64,000 nucleotides of DNA, from the NCBI RefSeq assembly GCF_003018255.1, contig NZ_CP027440.1. One strand, 5' to 3'. Below, one piece after another: positions 85 through 15,179 of the stretch. The position numbers were made by a program, and so were the translations under genes. The DNA comes from Escherichia coli (lineage in GTDB: Bacteria; Pseudomonadota; Gammaproteobacteria; Enterobacterales; Enterobacteriaceae). How positions within the stretch are numbered: the stretch's first letter is position 1; each line of letters begins with the position of its first letter. A model generated the notes under the pieces. The model made no database searches. It was not told where the DNA came from and worked only from the letters and a program-made list of their open reading frames with translations.

Positions 85-1356
85 ATGCAGTATGAAGATG
101 AAAACGGCGTGAATGAACCGTCACGCCGACGTTTACTGAAAGGGATTGGTGCGCTGGCGCTGGCGGGAAGTTGTCCGGTCGCTCATGCACAAAAAACGCA
201 AAGTGCGCCGGGTACGCTTTCACCGGATGCACGCAATGAGAAACAGCCGTTTTATGGTGAGCATCAGGCAGGGATCCTGACGCCACAACAGGCTGCAATG
301 ATGCTGGTGGCGTTTGATGTGCTTGCCAGCGATAAAGCCGATCTTGAACGGTTGTTTCGCTTGTTGACTCAGCGTTTTGCTTTTCTGACTCAGGGCGGAG
401 CGGCACCAGAAACGCCAAATCCGCGCCTGCCACCACTCGATTCCGGCATTCTTGGCGGCTACATTGCGCCCGATAATCTCACCATAACGTTATCGGTGGG
501 CCACTCATTGTTTGATGAGCGCTTTGGCCTTGCGCCACAGATGCCGAAAAAGTTGCAGAAGATGACGCGTTTCCCCAACGACTCGCTGGATGCGGCGTTA
601 TGTCATGGTGATGTGTTGCTACAAATTTGCGCCAACACCCAGGACACGGTGATCCATGCGCTGCGCGATATCATCAAACACACGCCGGATTTGCTCAGCG
701 TGCGCTGGAAGCGGGAAGGGTTTATTTCCGACCACGCGGCGCGTAGTAAAGGTAAAGAGACACCGATTAATTTGCTGGGTTTCAAAGACGGCACTGCCAA
801 TCCCGATAGCCAGAATGCGAAGTTGATGCAAAAAGTGGTGTGGGTGACGGCAGATCAGCAGGAGCCTGCGTGGACAATCGGTGGTAGCTACCAGGCGGTG
901 CGGTTGATTCAGTTTCGGGTGGAATTTTGGGACAGAACGCCGCTGAAAGAACAGCAGACGATATTTGGGCGTGATAAGCAAACCGGCGCGCCGCTGGGAA
1001 TGCAGCATGAGCATGATGTGCCTGATTACGCCAGCGATCCGGAGGGGAAGGTGATCGCGCTGGACAGCCATATCCGGCTGGCGAATCCCCGCACGCCAGA
1101 GAGTGAGTCAAGTCTGATGCTGCGTCGTGGCTACAGTTATTCGTTGGGCGTCACCAATTCCGGGCAACTCGATATGGGGCTACTGTTTGTCTGCTACCAA
1201 CACGATCTGGAAAAGGGCTTCCTGACAGTACAAAAAAGGTTGAATGGAGAGGCGCTGGAGGAATATGTCAAACCTATCGGTGGCGGCTATTTCTTTGCGC
1301 TGCCGGGTGTGAAGGACGCGAACGATTATCTCGGAAGCGCATTATTGCGGGTTTAA
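85..1356 (+). CDS. efeB: Deferrochelatase / dye-decolorizing peroxidase EfeB, Tat-secreted
   Basis: 423-aa ORF; N-terminus has a twin-arginine signal ([17 protein letters not shown]...AHA); length matches EfeB. Confidence 0.95.
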
Positions 1357-1362
1357 TGTTTT

Positions 1363-1492
1363 TAGGCGGATAAGGCGTTTACGCCGCACCAGGCGTTCGT
1401 GCGCTGATGCGACGCTTGCGCGTCTTATCATGCCTACAATCGGTGCGGGTTCGGTAGGCCGGATAAGGCGTTCACGCCGCATCCGGCAAGCT
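1363..1492. repeat. REP/BIME cluster (repetitive extragenic palindromes)
   Basis: Several copies of the GCCGGATAAGGCGTTYACGCCGCATCCGGC-type palindromic unit in alternating orientation between efeB and phoH. Confidence 0.7.
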
Positions 1493-1539
1493 TTTACCAG
1501 TACTGCGAATCCTGCTGAAAGCACACAGCTTTTTTATCA

Positions 1540-1557
1540 CTGTCATCACTTTGTCAT
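1540..1557 (+). promoter_or_regulatory. Pho box (PhoB binding site) of the phoH promoter
   Basis: CTGTCAT-cact-TTGTCAT: two 7-bp direct repeats with 4-bp spacer, matching the PhoB box consensus, upstream of phoH. Confidence 0.6.
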
Positions 1558-1981
1558 CTTTCCAGTAGAAACTAATGTCACTGAAATGGTGTTTTATGGT
1601 TAAATATAAGTGAATATATTGTTGCAATGAATGCGAGATCTGGTGTAATTATTAAGTAGCAGCGGAAGTTCCCGGCAGTGATAGTCAGTCACTATGGAGA
1701 TCGCGGATGGTAACGTCCTGTACTGGACAATGTTTTGTTAAGCAAGGCTCCACCACTCGCGGAGATTTCTCCTCCGGTAGCAACTTCGTCACTCTGTATT
1801 TTTCTCACTTCCTCTCTTTACTCGTGTTACCGACGCCGCAAACGGTGTGCGTAGCCGTTTTTCGGCATTTTATCCAAAAGCAAACTATGGCTTACAAGGA
1901 AGCCAACCCTCTGATGTTCGTGCGCATAATCGCGCTGCCAACGGCGCGTGTGATGAATACAAACAACTCAAGGTGCTCTCC

Positions 1982-2770
1982 ATGGGAAGACAAAAAGCAG
2001 TGATCAAAGCTCGTCGCGAGGCAAAACGTGTGCTGAGACGGGATTCGCGCAGCCATAAGCAGCGTGAAGAAGAATCGGTCACCTCGCTTGTGCAAATGAG
2101 CGGCGTAGAAGCCATTGGTATGGCCCGCGATAGTCGCGATACCTCGCCCATCCTCGCGCGAAATGAAGCGCAATTGCACTATCTGAAGGCTATTGAGAGT
2201 AAGCAGCTGATATTCGCCACGGGCGAAGCCGGGTGCGGAAAAACCTGGATCAGCGCAGCAAAAGCGGCAGAGGCCCTGATACATAAGGATGTCGACAGGA
2301 TTATCGTCACCCGTCCAGTTCTGCAAGCCGATGAAGATCTTGGCTTCTTACCTGGTGATATCGCAGAAAAGTTTGCTCCCTATTTTCGCCCGGTCTACGA
2401 CGTGCTGGTTCGGCGCTTAGGGGCTTCCTTTATGCAGTACTGCCTGCGACCGGAAATAGGGAAGGTGGAAATTGCGCCGTTCGCCTATATGCGTGGACGT
2501 ACCTTTGAAAATGCAGTCGTCATTCTTGACGAGGCGCAGAATGTGACTGCCGCGCAAATGAAAATGTTTTTAACCCGCCTCGGGGAGAACGTGACGGTTA
2601 TCGTCAACGGTGATATCACGCAATGCGATTTGCCTCGCGGCGTGCGCTCCGGATTAAGTGACGCGCTGGAACGTTTCGAAGAAGATGAAATGGTCGGGAT
2701 CGTCCGATTCGGTAAAGAGAATTGCGTACGTTCGGCACTTTGCCAACGTACGCTACATGCATACAGTTAA
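1982..2770 (+). CDS. phoH: Phosphate-starvation-inducible ATPase PhoH (start uncertain; see findings)
   Basis: Walker A motif GEAGCGKT and PhoH-family core; ATG at 1982 preceded by AAGG. The ORF track opens at GTG 1847 in the same frame; a separate upstream ORF (ATG 1707) is in another frame. Confidence 0.85.
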   Translation: MGRQKAVIKARREAKRVLRRDSRSHKQREEESVTSLVQMSGVEAIGMARDSRDTSPILARNEAQLHYLKAIESKQLIFATGEAGCGKTWISAAKAAEALIHKDVDRIIVTRPVLQADEDLGFLPGDIAEKFAPYFRPVYDVLVRRLGASFMQYCLRPEIGKVEIAPFAYMRGRTFENAVVILDEAQNVTAAQMKMFLTRLGENVTVIVNGDITQCDLPRGVRSGLSDALERFEEDEMVGIVRFGKENCVRSALCQRTLHAYS

Positions 2771-2819
2771 GTGTATTATCGGCGCAGAGCCCGGGCGAAC
2801 CGGGCTTTGTTTTGGGTGT

Positions 2820-3233
2820 TTATACCCGGACTAGCGTTTTTTCTGAAACCACCATTTTTATTTGTCCCTGACTGGTGAAGTGTACGCTCATCCTGTGGCT
2901 TTTTTGTAGTTGCTGATAAAGCTCATCAGGTATTGCTAAGCTCTCTGCATATTCTTGCGGCGTATATTGGTATGCTGCATGATGCTGCTGTTTTTTAAAA
3001 CGCAGCTTATTGTACAATGCCCAGACGATTAACACGACGGCATTCGCCACTGCCAGCAAAAAATAGAACTGAAGTCGGCTTCTGGCCTCGCTTTGCCAGT
3101 AATAACCCGTCAGCAGATCAATGGCGAATAAGAATATGAACAAAGCAAATAATGTCCACAAGATGGTTGTGGCAACATAATCAACCAGTAAACGTACTGG
3201 CGATTGTCGGGTCGTAATAATTAGATTGTTCAT
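2820..3233 (-). CDS. pgaD: PGA biosynthesis protein PgaD
   Basis: 137-aa membrane protein immediately downstream of pgaC; length and sequence match PgaD. Confidence 0.9.
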
Positions 3234-3234
3234 A

Positions 3235-4560
3235 TTAACCTCTCAGAATCCCACGATCGGGACTTACCCAACGAGCGCGTTGTTTTTTAGGCATCAACAT
3301 GACTCGTGTAAATGATACCAATGTCGTTGCCAGGCTTAGCATCCAGAAAATAACCGGAAACCAAATAATCCAGAAAAGCGATGAAGCCAGATTGTGCTCA
3401 TAGCGATTCTCAATTACCAGACTGACAATAAATTGCAGTAAACATAACGTGCACAATAATATTCCGGCAGTATGTGTCGCTGCGATATGTGTCAATTCAA
3501 TATTTAACGGTACACCTGCAAGTTGGACTGCGTAAATAATGAAACCGACCAGGCAGGTAAAGGCCCATATTGTCGTCAGGCAGTATTCAAAAAACAGTGG
3601 CCACATTCGAAAGTTTTCTTTTCGCCACAACCTTGTCATATTTTTGAGGAATACTTCTGCACCGCCCTGAGCCCAGCGCAGGCGCTGTTTCCACAGCCCT
3701 TTTAACGTTTCAGGCATTAATATCCAGCACAGCGCCCGTGGCTCGTAAAAAATCGTCCACTGATTCAACTGCAGCTTCCAGCTAATATCAATATCTTCGG
3801 TGATCATATCGTCACTCCAGTAACCCACTTCTGCCAGGGCGCTGCGACGAAATGCGGCAATAACACCGGAAACGGTAAATACATTTCCATAGATACGCTG
3901 GGTCCGCTTGATCAAACCAATAATTGAGGAATACTCGCCAACCTGAATTTTACCCACTAGGGTAGAACGTGTGCGAATACGAGGATTACCGGTTACGGCA
4001 CCCACACGTGGGTTGTACAACATCGGTTCCACAATATATGCCGCTGCATCGCGGTCTAATAACGCGTCGCCATCAATGCACACCAGATATTCACTTTTCG
4101 CCGCGGCAGCTCCGGTTTTAAGCGCAATGGCTTTCCCCTGGTTTTGCGCCAGATGAATGACCCGCAGACGGGGAATTTGTGCAGCCATGCGATCCAGGAT
4201 GGCACGGGTTTTGTCTGTTGAACCATCATTTACGGCAATAACTTCAATGTTCTCATAACGCTGTGCTAAAGCGGCATGTATGGTTTCCTCAACGTTTTTC
4301 TCCTCATTAAAACAGGGAATGATAATGGAGATAGATGGATTATCTTTCAACTGGGGGGCTGGTGCGTTTTCTCCCCACGGCCAGTGGCGTTCACGATAGA
4401 CCCAGAAATAGACGCCGCCAATAATCCACATAATGGACATAAAAAACGGCCAGAAGAAAACGAACCTCATCATCAGTTCACCAGAGTGAAAGTACGCTAC
4501 GCATAGAGGTATGCATAACACCAGACATAATATAAAAAACGATACGATGCGATTAATCAT
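3235..4560 (-). CDS. pgaC: Poly-beta-1,6-N-acetylglucosamine synthase PgaC (GT2 glycosyltransferase)
   Basis: 441-aa ORF with GT2 motifs ([23 protein letters not shown]). Confidence 0.95.
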
Positions 4561-6571
4561 TTTTCGGATACCAGGCTGTTGAAAACTCAGGACGAATAAC
4601 GTCTATTTCAGGTTGGTTATGCAGAAAATTGTCGGGATAATAACCATAATTTTTCACTCCATTCAGTTGTAATAGGCTCATCCAGTGAGCGAGTTGTTGT
4701 GAAGAAATAGCCTGATGCTGACCATTTTTCTGCCAGTTTTGTGCCTGTAATTCTAAAATTGATTTGTCTTTAGCCTGCGGGATGCTTTTCATCTGATTGG
4801 TCAATTGTGTTAACCATTGATCAGCCGATTTTTCTGTGACGCCTTCCATATAAGGCATAGCCATAATAGCGGTCCAGTCATAGCTTTTTAGGAAATCAGC
4901 ATAATTCTGTGCAAACCAAGCTTCACTTTCAGGTTGTATTACCGGAAGTGCAAAAATATTTCGTGCAGTTTTAACATGTGGACCACGAATGGCTTTTACG
5001 CGCGCACTAAGTTCTAAAGTGAAGTCAGTTAACGCACGACTTTTAAAGCGGGTCCACTGTTTGAATTGCTCCGGGTTTTGTCGAATTTCGCTCAGACTCC
5101 CGCTAAAGCCAGCTTGCTGATAAGCCGCGATAGCCGCTGCACTGGCATCTTCATAATCTGAAAGCAAAGCATCATCGTGGAACAATATGCCATCAAAAGC
5201 AGCATGTCCGGCAAGATCATCATATAACATGCCAACTTGTGCTCTGACCCTGTCATCGAAAGGGGAGAGACGGCGGTATTGTTCAGGATGAATTTGTGCT
5301 TTTTTCTCCCCAGTTGGTAAGTATTTTACTCGCGTTAATGTGGGATCTAAATCCCAGCTTAATACCGGCATCCACGCATAGATGTTTACACCTGAGCGGG
5401 TACGCAATTGCCAGGCAACCCGACTAAAAATATCTGCTTTCATTGGTAGCAAACGATTTGGAAACCAGACCTCTTTAACCAGCCCATCACCATCGGGATC
5501 AGCAAATGCTTGTAAATACACGGTAGATATTTGCATATCTTTTACCCTCTGAATTAGCACATCAATATTGCGATCCATTTGCTGGCGGTTTTCGTCATAA
5601 ATGTAATCAAGATCGATATGCATTACCCGTTGTAGTGGTTTTTCCTGTACGGTAATAATTTGCTGGGCAAACTCTTTTAATGAGGGATTATTGGCGATTA
5701 ATACTCGCGGAATGGAATCTAATTGCGACGCATTTGCCAAACCTGATTCAAGGGTGAAGAACATGTCATAACCGAGTTTTTTTAATTCCGCGATTGCTAT
5801 GCCATTCGCTTCGCCATAAGGCCAAACAAAAACGTGTGGATTTACCTCAGCCTTTGTACGCAGGTATTCCGTCATTTTTACAGCATCCAGACGAATTCTT
5901 TCCCGGTATTCTGCTGCGGTTTCATACCGTGCGTGGTCAGTAAAATATGCACGATTTACATATACAGGCAATAAGCTGCCGGTGGCATTAGCCTGAATAC
6001 CGTAGTGAGAATTCCATGTATGAGAAGCGACCTCAACGAGCCGGGAACGCGCAACTTCTCGCACTTGTTGCCACGTGGCAAAATATTCTCGACTGACCAT
6101 CTCATCGCCAAATTTTACTTGTTCATCCGCTGGCGTATCGACCCAACTGCCGACGGGGGCCCATACAGCAGGCCACTGGAAGGCCTGAAGAATTGGGAAG
6201 ACGCGGGTATAAAAACTCTGGTAGCCGTCATCAAAAGTCAGCACTACTGCTTTTTCCGGTAGCGGTTTTCCTCCTCGATGTGCTTCACGAATTTGAGCAA
6301 TACTGACCGGTTGATAACCGTTCTCGCGCAGCCAGGCAAATTGTTCACGCAGTGCTGATGTCCGCACTGACATAAAACGCTGGTCGGCAGCTTCGTCTTC
6401 AACGTTATGCCATGAAATCGCCACAAAACCATTATGCGGCCACGGTTGCTCGGCGAGTAAAGATTCGCGATCCTGTGGCGGTATAAATGATGTTCTTGAC
6501 TGGCTAATGCACGCAGTGAGCATAATTATACTCACCAGCATCAGGATATATTTATTTCCATTACGTAACAT
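4553..6571 (-). CDS. pgaB: PGA N-deacetylase lipoprotein PgaB
   Basis: 672-aa ORF with lipoprotein signal (LTAC) and polysaccharide deacetylase region; overlaps pgaC start by 8 nt. Confidence 0.95.
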
Positions 6572-6579
6572 ATTTATCC

Positions 6580-9003
6580 TTAAAATCTGAATGTCATATC
6601 GAATTCAACGTATAAGTTGTGTTCTCTGTCACCGTCATAAGGTCGTTTTTCCCAGCGTAGCGTTGCGCCAGCATCAATCACGTCATTCCAGCTAATACGT
6701 TGCCCGTAGCCGAGTTGGGTGACGACATCCGTGCCATAATGTTTTTGCCAGGAGGCACCAACACCTGCGCTGAAGATTTGCTCCCAGCTATTTTCATAGC
6801 TTCGCCATAACAAATGACTTGCCTCAAATGCCGGAACAATATCGAACGTTTTTATAGGGTTGTAGTATGGAGTGTCGTGTTCTGTATTTTGTTCGTAATA
6901 CAGATTGGGTAGGAAATCGACAATCAAATATGGTGAAGACCAGATGCGTTCCTGACCCTCAAGTGAGACTTCCTGACGCTGGTTACTGTCGGAAAAATCA
7001 GTGAAAGCCCAGGAGACACCGTACTTACGCCGCTCATTTTGATACCAGCGAACATAAGCCTGAGCACTGTTGCCTGTAACACCATTTTTCATTGCCCGTA
7101 ATGGAACGCGGTGAGAGAGGCGTTCCAGTTGCGAACCAATACGCCAGTTATCATTAAAATCATACCAGCCAGACAGGCGCGCGCCGGGTTTATGCTCATG
7201 ATTGAAAACGCGTTCAGCGTACTCCGCCTCGAGCCAGATATTACGTGACCGCCACTCAACACCCGCCAGCCAGTCGCGAACAATCCCTTTTCCTTCGCTA
7301 AATTGTCCATCGGCATAACCGAATCCAGCAAAACCGCGCCAGTTATCCTTCAGCGGTGGTGAATAAACGATGGTGGTTAAGTCGACATCATGTTTACCAC
7401 TATCCGGGCCTTCGGCATCAATTCCTGTTGAACCAGCTATACGAAGCTCTGCAAGATTATGTACATCAACCGCACGTTTTAAACGTACAACGCCGGGATC
7501 TTGCGGTTCACGTTCGACAACATCGTGCGTTAAGACAGCTGCCTGCTGCCATTCTTGTAACGTTAATGCTGTCCATGCTTGTTCAACCTCCAGATTAATA
7601 TTACGTGGCTCGATCACTTCTGCTTTTTTTAATTCATTTTCTGCTGCACGAGGCCAACCGCGGGCTTGTAACACACTCGCGTAATCAATGCGCAGTCCCT
7701 GATTTCCTGGTGCGTTATAAGCAAGCTCTCTGGCTATCATTTCAGCCTGAGGAAGATCATTACTATATTTTGCTACGGTTGAGAGAAACGAATGCCCCTG
7801 TAACCAGGTATCATTCGGGATGCTCGTAGGCGTGCCCATTAACCGAAGGAAAGGCGGCGAAGTATTAATGGTATGTTGGGTGACAGTTAGCGCGCCGGGA
7901 TAATTTTCACTCTCCAGGTGGCTGTAAAAGAGATCCGCAAGTTCTTCATCGGATAAATCCGGGGCAATGGTCTCCTTGTGATAAAAGAGCTCTGTCATTA
8001 TTGACTGTGCTTTTTTTGGCTGCTGTTCTTTGAGATAAGCCGACGCAACCCAATATTGCGCCCAGGGCGGAATAATTTGCCTCGTATTTTTTAAACGCTG
8101 ATAGTGAGAAATAACGTCTTTATAACGATCGCGAGTTAATAACGCGCCAAGATGATCAACCTGAATACGCTGGTACTGGGCAGTGCGGTCTGAGTTATCG
8201 TGCCACAGAATTTCTAATGCAGCGTATTGGGCGAGGGCGCGATCGGCAATGGCATAACGTTCACTTTCACTGCGCGTAGGCATAAACGACAGTCTGATCA
8301 GTTCGGCATGAATATCAGCGCGAATATCTGGCGTTAAATTGGCATCGTCAATCGCGGCAGCTAGTTGATTATTACGTAATGCCTGCACGTATTCTGTGGG
8401 ATATTGTTGCTTAGATGCATTTTCAGGTAATGACTCTGTCATCGCCCGTAATTCATCCTGATGACGCCCCGTCAGTTTATAGATATAGGCTTCTGCGAGT
8501 AAATTGGCTTTGTCCGGCGCTCCAGATTTAAGCTGCTTAAGTTTAACCAGCGCAGTATCATAGTGACCCGCATCTGCCAGGGTTAAAATTTGTCCCCGTT
8601 GATAATCCTTATTTTGCGGCTCCAGAGAGAGCGCCTTTTGCCACAGTGTAAGCGAGTTTTGCCATTGTTGCAGGTTACGATAAGCGACGGCGACAGCTGC
8701 ATAACCACGCGCTGGTAATTGCTGATGACGGTAGCGGCTGTAAACGGTAATGACCTGTTTATCTTGCCCGGCCCATAAGGCAATTTGTAACCAGTCAGCA
8801 ATTTGGTTATTACTGAGTGTTGATTTTTGTGCAAACCATGACAAAGCTGGCTGAGTATTTCCTTTGCGAGCTTCAATAATCAATGCATCATAGGCGTTAT
8901 TAACAGCACTCTTCGCCGCGGGACTCGCTGCTAAAAATGCGGCAGTAAGAAGTTTCAAAGCCCATTTGGTTTTCGGGCACCTTTTTCTGCTACTTGAATA
9001 CAT
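6580..9003 (-). CDS. pgaA: PGA outer-membrane export porin PgaA (TPR plus beta-barrel)
   Basis: 807-aa ORF with signal peptide; length and sequence match PgaA. Confidence 0.95.
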   Translation of the reverse strand: MYSSSRKRCPKTKWALKLLTAAFLAASPAAKSAVNNAYDALIIEARKGNTQPALSWFAQKSTLSNNQIADWLQIALWAGQDKQVITVYSRYRHQQLPARGYAAVAVAYRNLQQWQNSLTLWQKALSLEPQNKDYQRGQILTLADAGHYDTALVKLKQLKSGAPDKANLLAEAYIYKLTGRHQDELRAMTESLPENASKQQYPTEYVQALRNNQLAAAIDDANLTPDIRADIHAELIRLSFMPTRSESERYAIADRALAQYAALEILWHDNSDRTAQYQRIQVDHLGALLTRDRYKDVISHYQRLKNTRQIIPPWAQYWVASAYLKEQQPKKAQSIMTELFYHKETIAPDLSDEELADLFYSHLESENYPGALTVTQHTINTSPPFLRLMGTPTSIPNDTWLQGHSFLSTVAKYSNDLPQAEMIARELAYNAPGNQGLRIDYASVLQARGWPRAAENELKKAEVIEPRNINLEVEQAWTALTLQEWQQAAVLTHDVVEREPQDPGVVRLKRAVDVHNLAELRIAGSTGIDAEGPDSGKHDVDLTTIVYSPPLKDNWRGFAGFGYADGQFSEGKGIVRDWLAGVEWRSRNIWLEAEYAERVFNHEHKPGARLSGWYDFNDNWRIGSQLERLSHRVPLRAMKNGVTGNSAQAYVRWYQNERRKYGVSWAFTDFSDSNQRQEVSLEGQERIWSSPYLIVDFLPNLYYEQNTEHDTPYYNPIKTFDIVPAFEASHLLWRSYENSWEQIFSAGVGASWQKHYGTDVVTQLGYGQRISWNDVIDAGATLRWEKRPYDGDREHNLYVEFDMTFRF

Positions 9004-9237
9004 CCTGTATTACTCCATGTATTGCCAAAATCTCTCTCTATATCTAATTACAGGTAACTGAAAAGAAAGATATTTTTGCATCTCATAATCCGTTATTAAA
9101 CGCGGAAGAGACACGTGAATTGTTGATGATGAGAAGAAGAAATGATGAGCAGATTGTCCATATAAAATCCTTTTCTCGCCCGAAAATCCATTCCAATGAT
9201 GAGGATCTTCAGGAATACGGCATAAATCCCAATGCCT
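9004..9237 (-). promoter_or_regulatory. pgaA 5' leader with multiple GGA motifs (CsrA-binding leader)
   Basis: AT-rich untranslated region upstream of the pgaA start with at least six GGA motifs on the transcribed strand, one adjacent to the start codon (GGATG). Confidence 0.5.
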
Positions 9238-9590
9238 TTTTCAAAATAAATTAGGATTAAAATAATTAAATCAGTAAATTCCGATGCATAATTTCGGATT
9301 TTTCGAAAGTCCTGATGAAAGGCAGCGCTACTGCACTCACGAATTTAATTGTTATTCCTAATGTATCTATTAATTAATGCTTTATAAGGATTTTATTATA
9401 ATCCTTTATAAGTATTTGCAAGCCTGCCTTGCAGCAAAAAATGTATAAAGCATTAAAGTGATAATAATTACATTCTGCAACTATCATCATCGGTATTGTT
9501 TGTGGGTGGATTTTCATATTGACAACAGTACAGTTCTTATATCTATTAATAATAAAAAGGGATCTACAACCTACAGGTTGGTGTAGCTTT

Positions 9591-10958
9591 ATGGAAAAAG
9601 ACTATTTGGGAATTAGTAGTACTGTATTAGTGAGCTTATTGTTTGGGCTTGCATTGGTTTTGGTTAATAGTTGGTTCAATCAGCCAACCGTTGAGGAAGT
9701 TGTTCCACGATCAACCTATCTGATGGTTATGATTGCTTTATTTTTTATCGATACTGTTGCATTTATTTTTATGCAGTTGTATTTCATTTATGACCGTAGG
9801 CAATTTTCAAACTGTATACTTAGTTTGGCTTTTCTAAGTTGTTTGATTTACTTTATTAAAACCGTCATTATCATTCAGCAAATTATTGAGGGGCGTTTGA
9901 CAAGCAGTGTTGTTCAAAATGACATTGCAATTTATTATTTGTTTCGTCAGATGAGTTTGTGCGTATTAATATTTCTGGCATTGGTAAATAAAGTTAGTGA
10001 AAACACAAAACAGCGCAATTTGTTTTCCAAAAAAGTGACTTTGTGCATAACTTTGTTTTTTGTTCTTGGGGGGCCGATAGTTGCTCACATATTTTCTAGC
10101 CATTATGAGAGCTACGATTTACACATTGCCGAGTTAACCAATAAAAATGGTCAGGTGGTTTGGAAAGCCTCATATGTTACCATAATGATTTTCATGTGGT
10201 TAACCTTGCTTTCGGTTAATCTATACTTTAATGGTTTACGCTGTGATATCTGGAACGGGGTGTCGGTGATTGCTTTTTGTGCCGTGCTGTACAATATCTC
10301 TCTGTTATTTATGAGCAGGTATAGCGTGTCCATTTGGTATATTAGTCGCACTATTGAAGTAGTCAGTAAGTTAACCGTTTTGGTAATTTTTATGTGCCAT
10401 ATATTCAGTGCGCTACGAGTAACAAAGGACATTGCACATCGCGATCCCTTAACCAATATATTTAACAGAAATTATTTTTTTAATGAACTGACGGTTCAAT
10501 CAGCATCGGCCAAAAAAAAACCTTATTGCGTCATGATTATGGATATTGACCACTTCAAAAAAGTCAACGACACCTGGGGACATCCGGTTGGCGATCAAGT
10601 GATAAAGACAGTGGTGAATATCATTGGGAAAAGCATACGACCAGATGACCTTTTAGCGCGCGTTGGCGGCGAAGAGTTTGGCGTCTTGCTGACGGAGATC
10701 GATACTGAATGTGCGAAAGCTTTAGCGGAAAGGATTCGGGAAAATGTTGAACGTTTAACTGGCGATAATCCTGAATACGCCATACCACAAAAAGTGACAA
10801 TTAGTATTGGCGCTGTTGTAACGCAGAAAAATGAGTTAAACCCTAAGGAGATCTATCAACTGGCTGATAACGCACTTTACGAGGCGAAAGAGACCGGGCG
10901 TAATAAGGTGGTAGTAAAAGAGGCAGAAATTCTTATCAACCGCAAGGATGATGAATGA
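9591..10958 (+). CDS. dgcT: Membrane-anchored diguanylate cyclase (GGDEF) YcdT/DgcT
   Basis: Multi-TM N-terminal half plus C-terminal GGDEF domain (RVGGEEFGVLL); start placed at ATG 9591 (MEKDYLGISS), downstream of the ORF-track start. Confidence 0.85.
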   Translation: MEKDYLGISSTVLVSLLFGLALVLVNSWFNQPTVEEVVPRSTYLMVMIALFFIDTVAFIFMQLYFIYDRRQFSNCILSLAFLSCLIYFIKTVIIIQQIIEGRLTSSVVQNDIAIYYLFRQMSLCVLIFLALVNKVSENTKQRNLFSKKVTLCITLFFVLGGPIVAHIFSSHYESYDLHIAELTNKNGQVVWKASYVTIMIFMWLTLLSVNLYFNGLRCDIWNGVSVIAFCAVLYNISLLFMSRYSVSIWYISRTIEVVSKLTVLVIFMCHIFSALRVTKDIAHRDPLTNIFNRNYFFNELTVQSASAKKKPYCVMIMDIDHFKKVNDTWGHPVGDQVIKTVVNIIGKSIRPDDLLARVGGEEFGVLLTEIDTECAKALAERIRENVERLTGDNPEYAIPQKVTISIGAVVTQKNELNPKEIYQLADNALYEAKETGRNKVVVKEAEILINRKDDE

Positions 10959-11020
10959 GTCTGTCGCTAGTTGTCGACCTCCGCCTGGGGCTTCTCATCC
11001 CCCAGTGTGTGAAATATACG

Positions 11021-11048
11021 AAAAAAAGCTCGCACTTTCGTACGAGCT
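11021..11048 (-). terminator. Intrinsic terminator downstream of serX
   Basis: Hairpin AGCTCG...CGAGCT followed by a U-run on the minus strand, just 3' of the tRNA. Confidence 0.45.
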
Positions 11049-11060
11049 CTTCTTTAAATA

Positions 11061-11148
11061 TGGCGGTGAGGGGGGGATTCGAACCCCCGATACGTTGCCG
11101 TATACACACTTTCCAGGCGTGCTCCTTCAGCCACTCGGACACCTCACC
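11061..11148 (-). tRNA. serX: tRNA-Ser (anticodon GGA), encoded CCA, long variable arm
   Basis: Reverse complement reads GGTGAGGTGTCCGAGTGGCTGAAGGAGCACGCCTGGAAAGTGTG...GGTTCGAATCCCCCCCTCACCGCCA; anticodon loop CUGGAAA gives anticodon GGA. Confidence 0.93.
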
Positions 11149-11329: not shown

Positions 11330-12319
<990 letters not shown>

Positions 12320-12373
12320 TAAAGCATCAGGTTTCCTGCTATCCTTGGCGGGAATTGAATACAGGAGAGAGTT

Positions 12374-13111
12374 ATGTATCCCGTCGACCTTCATATGCAT
12401 ACCGTTGCCAGCACGCATGCATATAGCACATTGAGTGATTACATTGCCCAGGCCAAACAAAAGGGCATTAAACTTTTTGCGATCACCGATCATGGCCCGG
12501 ATATGGAAGATGCGCCGCATCACTGGCACTTCATTAACATGCGTATCTGGCCGCGAGTGGTTGATGGGGTTGGGATCCTGCGCGGCATCGAAGCTAACAT
12601 TAAAAATGTTGACGGTGAAATTGACTGCAGTGGCAAAATGTTTGATTCGCTGGATCTGATTATTGCCGGTTTTCATGAGCCGGTGTTTGCGCCGCATGAC
12701 AAAGCGACCAATACGCAAGCGATGATCGCCACTATCGCCAGCGGCAATGTGCATATAATAAGCCATCCCGGAAATCCGAAATATGAAATAGATGTTAAAG
12801 CCGTTGCTGAAGCAGCCGCGAAACATCAGGTGGCGCTGGAAATCAATAATTCCTCATTTTTACACTCACGTAAGGGCAGTGAAGACAACTGTCGGGCGGT
12901 AGCCGCAGCGGTACGTGACGCTGGAGGTTGGGTGGCATTAGGCTCGGATTCTCACACTGCGTTTACCATGGGGGAATTTGAAGAGTGTCTTAAAATCCTC
13001 GACGCGGTAGATTTTCCGCCAGAGCGCATTTTGAATGTTTCTCCGCGCCGCTTACTTAACTTCCTTGAATCTCGCGGTATGGCACCGATTGCGGAATTTG
13101 CAGACCTTTAA
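12374..13111 (+). CDS. ycdX: PHP-family metal-dependent phosphatase YcdX
   Basis: 245-aa ORF beginning [10 protein letters not shown] with His-rich PHP motifs. Confidence 0.93.
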
Positions 13112-13134
13112 TTACTAGTAATGGAAATATATTA

Positions 13135-13689
13135 ATGAATGAGTTTTCTATCCTCTGTCGTGTGCTGGGTTCGCTCTATTACCGCCAACCGCAAGATCCT
13201 TTACTGGTGCCGTTGTTTACCCTGATTCGTGAGGGGAAACTGGCTGCGAACTGGCCACTGGAGCAGGATGAGTTACTGACGCGTTTACAGAAAAGCTGTG
13301 ATATGACGCAAGTCTCTGCCGATTACAATGCGTTGTTTATCGGCGATGAATGTGCTGTGCCGCCATATCGTAGCGCATGGGTTGAGGGCGCAACGGAAGC
13401 GGAAGTGCGCGCTTTTCTTTCCGAACGAGGGATGCCACTAGCGGATACGCCAGCCGATCACATCGGCACATTGCTGCTTGCGGCTTCCTGGCTGGAAGAT
13501 CAGTCAACGGAAGATGAGAGCGAAGCACTGGAAACACTGTTCAGTGAGTATCTGTTACCCTGGTGTGGTGCGTTCCTTGGCAAAGTGGAGGCCCATGCAA
13601 CTACGCCTTTCTGGCGCACCATGGCACCGCTAACCCGCGATGCTATTAATGCAATGTGGGACGAGCTGGAAGAAGATTCTGAAGAGTAA
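13135..13689 (+). CDS. ycdY: TorD-family chaperone YcdY
   Basis: 184-aa ORF immediately downstream of ycdX; matches YcdY. Confidence 0.9.
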   Translation: MNEFSILCRVLGSLYYRQPQDPLLVPLFTLIREGKLAANWPLEQDELLTRLQKSCDMTQVSADYNALFIGDECAVPPYRSAWVEGATEAEVRAFLSERGMPLADTPADHIGTLLLAASWLEDQSTEDESEALETLFSEYLLPWCGAFLGKVEAHATTPFWRTMAPLTRDAINAMWDELEEDSEE

Positions 13690-13790
13690 ATGTGATCTGC
13701 ATCACTCATAACTGCAACGGGTAATTTGTTGTTGCATAAAATGTGTGCTCGATCTCATTCATGGCCGCGTTTTCTGCTATCATGCGCGGC

Positions 13791-14282
13791 ATGAACATAC
13801 TTCTCTCTATTGCAATCACAACAGGCATTCTCTCCGGTATCTGGGGATGGGTGGCTGTTTCCCTGGGCTTACTAAGCTGGGCGGGCTTCCTGGGCTGTAC
13901 GGCCTACTTTGCCTGCCCACAAGGTGGGCTGAAAGGGCTGGCGATCTCCGCTGCAACCCTGCTTAGTGGCGTGGTGTGGGCGATGGTCATTATTTACGGT
14001 AGTGCACTGGCACCACATCTGGAAATACTCGGTTATGCCATAACCGGTATTGTCGCGTTTCTGATGTGTATCCAGGCCAAACAGCTGCTGCTTTCATTTG
14101 TTCCGGGGACGTTTATAGGCGCATGCGCGACGTTTGCCGGGCAGGGTGACTGGAAACTGGTGTTACCTTCGCTGGCGCTTGGACTGGTATTTGGTTACGC
14201 AATGAAAAACAGCGGCCTGTGGTTGGCGGCGCGTAGTGCAAAGACGGCTCACCGTGAGCAGCAAATCAAAAATAAAGCGTGA
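13791..14282 (+). CDS. ycdZ: Inner membrane protein YcdZ (DUF1097)
   Basis: Hydrophobic 163-aa product from ATG 13791 (MNILLSIAITTG...); the ORF track begins 16 codons upstream. Confidence 0.85.
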   Translation: MNILLSIAITTGILSGIWGWVAVSLGLLSWAGFLGCTAYFACPQGGLKGLAISAATLLSGVVWAMVIIYGSALAPHLEILGYAITGIVAFLMCIQAKQLLLSFVPGTFIGACATFAGQGDWKLVLPSLALGLVFGYAMKNSGLWLAARSAKTAHREQQIKNKA

Positions 14283-14345
14283 GGGGCACTCACGCTTTCG
14301 CTTAAACCGTAAAATGTCGGATGATAATTCCGGCATTTTTATCTA

Positions 14346-15179
14346 TCAGGATTCCGGTGGAACCGACATATGGCGGTATTTCACTAGAATGTCATTCTGC
14401 CGTTCTGCTTTATTTTGCAAATCCCAAAGACCGCGGTCGATACCATCATTAATCAGGAAAATGACGCCTGTTTCGATAGCCGACATCAGGCACAGCATAA
14501 CGGGTTCGTTCGAGGTGTAACCTACTTCCCCTTCCAGCAAGCGCTGGTAGTCAATAAAGCGGAAGACCCCCGCCTGAACTTCATAGGAAAGTATCGTCTT
14601 ACTGGTGTTCACCGAGGAGAGGATCTCGCCGGTACTCACATTGACGACGCGCAGGTTCACGGCAATCTGATCAAGCTGGTATTGCGTGTCTGCACCGATC
14701 CCAAAATATCTTGCCCCAACCCCGCCCGATTTAACGTTGCTTTCATAACCGATAATTGAACCTTCAACCATGATATTTGCCGCCGTTAAAGATTGCAGCG
14801 GGATTCGGTTATTAATGGCAACCGTGCCGTTTTCTTGTGCCGCACGAATAATCTTGCGCTCGTTAAGCAGGTTTTGTAAGCCTTGGCGCTCCAGCGGTAT
14901 AAACCAGCGAGAATCTTTCAATGCCGTGACCAGCATTGCCGTGGCGCTTTGCGGAACAGCAGTGGAGAAGTTACTTGCCGGGTAGGGTTTAAATTGCCCG
15001 GTTTCGTCCTGAATGTTGTATACCGAAACAAAGATCTTACCCGTCGGCGCTGGCAGATGGGTCAAATCTTTGTAGCTCTGAGCACGAGGCATTAATGTCG
15101 GTCTGGCGGCTTCTTTAGGCGGGGCGGTTAAGCATCCGCTCAGTAACATGACGGCAACCAAAAGAAATAAGCGCTGCAT
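14346..15179 (-). CDS. csgG: Curli secretion channel lipoprotein CsgG
   Basis: 277-aa ORF with lipoprotein signal (LLSGC); matches CsgG. Confidence 0.95.
   Translation of the reverse strand: MQRLFLLVAVMLLSGCLTAPPKEAARPTLMPRAQSYKDLTHLPAPTGKIFVSVYNIQDETGQFKPYPASNFSTAVPQSATAMLVTALKDSRWFIPLERQGLQNLLNERKIIRAAQENGTVAINNRIPLQSLTAANIMVEGSIIGYESNVKSGGVGARYFGIGADTQYQLDQIAVNLRVVNVSTGEILSSVNTSKTILSYEVQAGVFRFIDYQRLLEGEVGYTSNEPVMLCLMSAIETGVIFLINDGIDRGLWDLQNKAERQNDILVKYRHMSVPPES

Follow-up and report, generated by a model that had tools for sequence, protein, structure and literature searches.

The window, i.e. the whole 64-kb stretch of Escherichia coli DNA analysed here, carries on its minus strand a pgaABCD operon (2820..9003), delimited by its open reading frames and by NCBIfam equivalog matches: pgaA (6580..9003, 807 aa, AUG at 9003..9001), pgaB (4553..6571, 672 aa), pgaC (3235..4560, 441 aa) and pgaD (2820..3233, 137 aa). 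PgaA, PgaB, PgaC and PgaD are full length and all score above the NCBIfam equivalog cut-offs, so that the operon is intact; pgaA is also annotated by RefSeq beneath the matching sequence. Divergent from pgaA lies dgcT (ycdT), a diguanylate cyclase gene on the plus strand (9591..10958), identified by the RefSeq annotation of matching genomes and by a GGDEF domain match; the same divergent arrangement exists in K-12. The whole pgaA-dgcT intergenic region covers 9004..9590. Its part directly 5' of the pgaA AUG is the 234-nt untranslated leader of pgaA (9004..9237, minus strand), with +1 placed at 9237 by homology to K-12. Leader and AUG together make 237 nt on the mRNA (minus) strand, of composition A69 C40 G47 T81; with 63% A+T, this agrees with the long AT-rich leader noticed in an earlier reading made from the sequence only.

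The genes around (85..2770 and 11381..15179 on the two flanks) follow the order efeB, phoH, then pgaDCBA, dgcT, tRNA-Ser, ghrA, a PHP-domain protein, a DmsD-like chaperone—which scores too low for an equivalog match—and csgG; two biofilm loci, those for PGA and curli, lie no more than about 6 kb apart. The tRNA-Ser(GGA) gene occupies 11061..11148 on the minus strand. Compared with strain D8, the window is 99.25% identical over 904..11074; the similarity ends at 11074, within tRNA-Ser(GGA), past which D8 carries a tyrosine-integrase / IS1 / YfjI-type island that the window does not have. This break inside the tRNA gene, together with an island present in D8 only, suggests that tRNA-Ser(GGA) may be a site of tRNA-targeted island insertion. 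On the dgcT side of the intergenic region (9540..9590, plus strand), the dgcT leader displays an AGGGAUC motif, then an inverted repeat, CUACAACC...GGUUGGUGUAG, just 5' of the ATG (9591). As ycdT figures among the listed CsrA targets, with one consensus site (PMC6028588, PMC4066749), pgaA and dgcT, on both sides of one intergenic region, would both be CsrA targets.

The leader with its AUG is identical to that of K-12 at 233 of 237 positions, without indels and with the same 234-nt length. The four substitutions (C84A, C126G, G157A and C198U) all fall outside the motifs; the eight GGAs and the AGAGAGAGA run are the same in both leaders. Alignment to the characterized K-12 leader, which the sequence-only reading had proposed as a check, thus reveals no loss of a K-12 GGA site; its recognition of the known CsrA-repressed pgaA leader is borne out by this identity and by the intact pgaABCD downstream. 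All four substituted positions are variable among E. coli lineages.

The leader is 100% identical to that of CFT073, and its allele is common to CFT073 and about 440 other complete genomes. By megablast, the leader was matched in 4169 of 5426 complete E. coli genomes, with 443 genomes at 99% identity or more; over a wider region of 661 nt, identity is 100% with strain D8 and 95.8% with K-12. The leader was unmatched in the other 1257 complete genomes, and seven of the matches are on plasmids; besides, pgaA is interrupted by IS5 in one K-12 record and by an internal stop codon in strain 06-00048. The pga locus appears to be often lost or inactivated, and its leader conserved where present. The eight GGAs are invariant in 11 E. 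coli leaders sampled over 94-100% identity. We dropped this invariance as evidence: among leaders so close, the absence of change in 24 positions occurs fairly often by chance, a rough estimate with about 16 variable columns giving about one in five trials without any change in the 24 GGA positions.

The pgaA promoter region (-124..-1, 9238..9361, minus strand) is taken from the fragment used as promoter in PMC4052769. It differs from K-12 by substitutions at -53, -87, -95 and -105; no difference from K-12 occurs over -52..+83, and divergence is greater in a block further upstream, at -134..-223. A simple sigma-70 scan gave no strong promoter match on the minus strand upstream of pgaA, and the sole "terminator" returned by a terminator scan was the 5' hairpin read in reverse complement, on the strand that is not transcribed. 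From the identity to K-12 over -52..+83, we infer that transcription starts at 9237, 234 nt 5' of the AUG. With +1 at this position, the predicted fold pairs G61 with C107, in agreement with the published coordinates.

On the mRNA strand, the leader and AUG contain eight GGAs, with their first G at +9, +44, +49, +68, +79, +147, +222 and +233 (9229, 9194, 9189, 9170, 9159, 9091, 9016 and 9005 in the window). The sequence-only reading had announced at least six, which is correct and an undercount. It had also placed the start codon in a GGATG context, as is indeed the case: the last GGA is that of CAGGAUG at +233, and it shares its A with the start codon (9003), one base beyond 9004..9237. The number of GGAs is modestly unusual, the expectation being 2.66 +/- 1.45 in mononucleotide shuffles (P(>=8)=0.002) and 5.37 +/- 1.52 in dinucleotide-preserving shuffles (P=0.08). 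On the same strand of the 64-kb window, about 1% of the 237-nt windows contain at least eight GGAs, and the complementary strand of the leader contains three. The count is thus raised, which is suggestive but not decisive alone; it becomes meaningful because this leader is homologous to the footprinted leader of K-12.

Six CsrA sites have been reported in the 234-nt pgaA UTR (Wang et al. 2005, Mol Microbiol 56:1648, cited in PMC4052769). The 5'-proximal pair of these sites maps within +61..+81, on the left-hand arm of an imperfect hairpin that extends over +61..+107 (Figueroa-Bossi et al. 2014, PMC4052769), and deleting 61-81 takes out both (PMC4052769). In our leader, whose features are all given on the minus strand, these two sites correspond to AAGGA at +68 (BS1, AAAGGAUUU, GGA at 9168..9170), the proposed nucleation site, and to AUGGA at +79 (BS2, AUAUGGAC, GGA at 9157..9159), which is the same in the 11 E. 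coli leaders. At the other end, AUGGAG at +222 (BS5, GGA at 9014..9016), which is the Shine-Dalgarno (SD) of pgaA, and CAGGAUG at +233 (BS6, UACAGGAUGUAU, GGA at 9003..9005), which overlaps the start codon, are the same as in K-12, where both have described roles in the control by CsrA (PMC4052769, PMC7652899).

The coordinates of the footprinted sites were obtained from secondary sources, and sites 3 and 4 were rebuilt from Table 2 of Kulkarni et al. (PMC4066749), which, with reference to Wang 2005, classes ACGGA as a primary and AGAGA as a secondary type of CsrA site. The leader possesses one ACGGA, at +147, the presumed BS3 (AACGGAUUA, GGA at 9089..9091), and a single AGAGA, included in the AGAGAGAGA run at +199..+207 (9031..9039), to which we assign presumptively the non-GGA site BS4. 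The six published sites would then be five GGAs and one AGAGA, the GGAs at +9, +44 and +49 standing outside them. The latter two, 5 nt apart (9187..9194), occur in every E. coli leader sampled and are not kept in the diverged leaders considered below. The pairs +68/+79 and +222/+233 are each 11 nt apart, inside the range of 10-63 nt over which a CsrA dimer bridges its sites (PMC4052769).

In K-12, the hairpin +61..+107 (9131..9177 in the window) acts as an anti-terminator, and its right arm constitutes the 5' half of a Rho utilisation (rut) site; CsrA binding melts the hairpin and Rho then terminates (PMC4052769), an account also given in the review of Pourciau et al. (PMC7652899). In the window, its predicted structure and energy are those of K-12 (MFE -6.4 kcal/mol, ViennaRNA), C84A being located in the apical loop and leaving the predicted energy unchanged. 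The stability of the hairpin does not exceed that of shuffled sequence (z=-0.12); this is consistent with the published marginal stability that lets CsrA open it, but brings no independent thermodynamic support. The C-rich, G-poor tract at +82..+145 (9093..9156, its 3' limit being approximate), recognized by its composition and containing the rut site according to PMC4052769, contains 19 C / 5 G, with 14 YC dimers, compared with 21 C / 4 G and 15 YC in K-12; the change in C and G is due to C84A and C126G, and the tract remains strongly C-rich. G157A and C198U are outside any GGA, C198U being immediately 5' of the AGAGAGAGA (AGAGA) run. We see no reason to expect a loss of CsrA control.

The predicted MFE folds of the whole leader differ between K-12 and the window; they were not relied on, such folds being unreliable for an element that acts co-transcriptionally. 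A hairpin at the SD and AUG (AAUACAU...AUGUAUU) was also rejected: shuffled sequence folds about as well (z=-0.24), and the hairpin is not kept in Citrobacter. A search of 8800..9700, on both strands, with the covariance models of Rfam 15 gave no match at E<=1. Since we know of no Rfam family for the pgaA leader, this result has no weight against the identification.

The leader was further compared with diverged ones. A scan of genomes with PgaA returned only four loci, from which come L012, belonging to a genome labelled "E. coli" with a PgaA 80% identical, and L013 and L014, of two Citrobacter sp.; L016 (PgaA 78%) and L018 (76%) were obtained from protein homologues and their contigs. The upstream regions of Leclercia (L015), of a 57%-identical metagenomic homologue (L019) and of Enterobacter (L021, L022) were left out of the alignment as non-homologous. 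The diverged leaders measure 218-234 nt and are 44-74% identical to that of the window, for PgaA proteins 72-80% identical; a dgcT-like gene is divergent from pgaA in L012, L013, L014, L016 and L018. They contain eight GGAs in L012, six in L016 (counted by eye), seven in L018, and five and four in Citrobacter, at positions that turn over. Three blocks are nevertheless invariant in the eight aligned leaders: CAU..GGA..UAUG at the 5' end, AAAGGA (BS1), and UACAGGAUGUAU (BS6 and start codon). Elsewhere, L012, L016 and Citrobacter have GAA or GAG at BS2; L016 and L018 keep BS3, which reads GGG in L012; for BS5, L018 has GGG and Citrobacter a shift of one base; and beyond E. coli and L012 the AGAGA run is degraded. 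For the in-register E. coli GGAs kept in Citrobacter, the binomial P is about 0.02-0.07. CsrA binding was reported to nucleate at BS1, BS2 being more dispensable (PMC4052769), and the invariance of BS1 opposed to the turnover elsewhere fits this conclusion.

When the K-12-type structure is applied to the eight leaders, 81% of the cells are paired and six pairs are changed on both sides, five of them in the hairpin +61..+107 and one in the 5' hairpin. Covariation amounts to 0.177, vs 0.098 +/- 0.018 in shuffles (0/500) and 0.03-0.11 with the partners slid, for a structure derived from one of the eight aligned sequences and for only about five independent lineages. It supports the anti-terminator hairpin.

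Some of these loci deserve a separate mention. The L012 leader (NZ_JAATUR010000045.1, SCPM-O-B-8794, 3267..3500) is 74% identical, with eight GGAs at partly different positions: BS2 and BS3 are lost, and new GGAs appear at +59 and +188. L012 is either a divergent allele or a mislabelled species. In Enterobacter (L021, 932..1168; L022, 840..1070), a 76-78 aa ORF with no Pfam match on record lies directly upstream of pgaA on the same strand, replacing the long E. coli-type leader. In L016, the public PgaA call (832 aa) begins 26 codons too early, within the leader (1201..1278); the conserved start, MYSS, lies at 1279 and follows UACAGGAUG, which is also conserved.

The first of the invariant blocks belongs to a predicted 5'-terminal hairpin (+2..+19, 9219..9236), GGCAU-UGGGAUUU-AUGCC, with a GGCAU/AUGCC stem and a GGA in its loop (+9..+11, 9227..9229). 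It has an MFE of -6.7 kcal/mol, represents 94% of the ensemble and reaches z=-1.96. From E. coli to Citrobacter—whose loop is AAGGAAC—CAU..GGA..UAUG does not vary, and the stem shows one compensatory change, from G-C to A-U, in L018; this conservation equals that of BS1 and of the start-codon site, in leaders only about 44% identical. A GGA in a hairpin loop is the preferred form of CsrA target (PMC6028588, PMC8151843). This hairpin appears not to be one of the six sites, because it stands upstream of the 5'-proximal pair of PMC4052769. We tentatively raise the possibility, without holding it for probable, that it functions as a seventh element of the leader, either as a high-affinity CsrA site so far unreported or as a determinant of 5' stability, or in both ways. 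This hairpin is the sole element here that might be new, as a low-probability lead; if true, it would link CsrA to the reported destabilisation of the pga mRNA.

Altogether, 9237..9004 (minus strand) is very probably the leader of the E. coli pgaABCD mRNA, in the allele of CFT073-like strains, acting as the K-12 leader does. The latter was shown to carry six CsrA sites and to undergo translational repression and CsrA-induced Rho termination (PMC4052769, PMC7652899). By transposition from the K-12 literature, CsrA dimers would bind the GGA-containing sites of the leader. At the 5'-proximal pair (+68, +79), CsrA would melt the marginally stable hairpin +61..+107; this would expose the C-rich rut tract, and Rho would terminate within the leader. 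On the transcripts that escape, CsrA at the Shine-Dalgarno (+222) and start-codon (+233) sites would block 30S binding. The pgaA leader is more than a translational operator, its two 5'-proximal sites driving a CsrA-dependent Rho termination (PMC4052769). Our own basis is the sequence identity, the motifs, the hairpin, the C-rich tract and the operon, while CsrA binding, Rho termination and repression are carried over from the K-12 literature.

The prediction of the sequence-only reading that post-transcriptional control is probably intact can be followed for the cis-elements: every K-12 GGA, the hairpin and the C-rich tract are kept, and PgaABCD are full length. The cis-elements for CsrA control look intact; control at the level of the strain also needs csrA, csrB/csrC and rho, which, like nhaR, are all outside the 64-kb window. 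This CFT073-like strain would thus keep the complete cis apparatus by which CsrA (and through it CsrB/CsrC/McaS) and Rho restrain the PGA adhesin. This is an already known CsrA/Rho-controlled element, an ordinary feature in a common natural allele, which matters little beyond annotation. The comparison could be modestly useful to Csr specialists, as the core that stays invariant across diverged leaders consists of BS1, the start-codon site and the 5' GGA hairpin, and turnover is seen at BS2, at BS3, in the AGAGA run and at the SD site.

One may object that the GGAs cluster by accident of composition, the intergenic region being AT-rich and purine-patchy, and that they have no regulatory meaning here: eight or more GGAs are found in 8% of the dinucleotide-preserving shuffles and in about 1% of arbitrary 237-nt windows, and their invariance within E. 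coli is uninformative at 94-100% identity. This is hardly credible, however, for a leader nearly identical to one with experimental CsrA binding, site mutagenesis and Rho termination; moreover the GGAs of BS1, BS6 and the 5' hairpin do not vary even in leaders whose overall identity is only 44%, and the GGAs conserved in register from E. coli to Citrobacter (binomial P about 0.02-0.07) point the same way. The pair +68/+79 could also be mainly the SD and start of a 21-codon leader peptide (MDNLLIISSSHHQQFTCLFRV, +77..+142, 9096..9161), ribosomes shielding rut and CsrA repressing this upstream ORF instead of acting on the hairpin. Its SD would be BS1, with AAGGA 7 nt 5' of an AUG that overlaps BS2; the ORF covers the rut tract, the AAAGGAUUU.AUAUG block is kept as far as Citrobacter, and five of the six lineages have an ORF of 20-21 codons. 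But a mutant of this AUG (+77 in our numbering, nucleotide 78 in PMC4052769) was published as having no effect (Figueroa-Bossi et al., PMC4052769), by which the proposal is largely refuted. The peptide is besides poorly conserved, with two non-synonymous changes vs K-12, six vs L012 and a frameshift reducing it to 10 aa in Citrobacter L014, so that we regard a role of this ORF as very unlikely.

Another reading accepts the K-12-type control and supposes that the CFT073-type allele (A84, G126, A157 and U198, plus the four changes in the promoter fragment) shifts the CsrA/Rho set-point, PGA expression then differing from that of K-12. Possible routes are a slightly weaker rut tract, C126G and C84A costing two C's and adding one G (15 to 14 YC dimers), or a changed context beside the AGAGA site, since C198U adjoins the 5' end of the AGAGAGAGA run. 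The whole-leader MFE folds are unlike between the two alleles, although such predictions are unreliable for a co-transcriptional element; and pga expression does differ between E. coli C and K-12, though this was attributed to the CsrA level (PMC8151843). On the other hand all the changes spare the GGAs and the paired positions of the hairpin, and the same positions vary freely in E. coli lineages and in the diverged leaders, suggesting a low constraint. We consider such a shift unlikely, and retain a leader that behaves as its K-12 counterpart.

Among known systems, the CsrB/CsrC decoy sRNAs also contain many GGAs, typically in hairpin loops, and the 5'-terminal hairpin of pgaA is of such form. 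However, these RNAs are non-coding sponges with 14-18 sites (PMC8151843), whereas the pgaA motifs belong to a cis-acting mRNA leader in which only one GGA is in a stable hairpin loop. The multi-site CsrA-repressed leaders of glgC, cstA, nhaR and ydeH, of the category "multiple binding sites around the SD" (PMC4066749), resemble that of pgaA in their GGA-centred sites, one of them over the Shine-Dalgarno, and in a CsrA dimer that bridges paired sites in competition with the ribosome. By comparison, that of pgaA exceeds them greatly in length and also in number of sites, and possesses an extra Rho-dependent attenuator run by the 5'-proximal pair. The closest system is the K-12 pgaABCD 5' UTR itself. 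The window departs from it by four substitutions in the leader, four in the promoter fragment and the diverged block at -134..-223, and shares with it the locus, the 234-nt length, the GGAs, the AGAGAGAGA run, the hairpin, the SD and the start context, the rut tract being C-rich in both.
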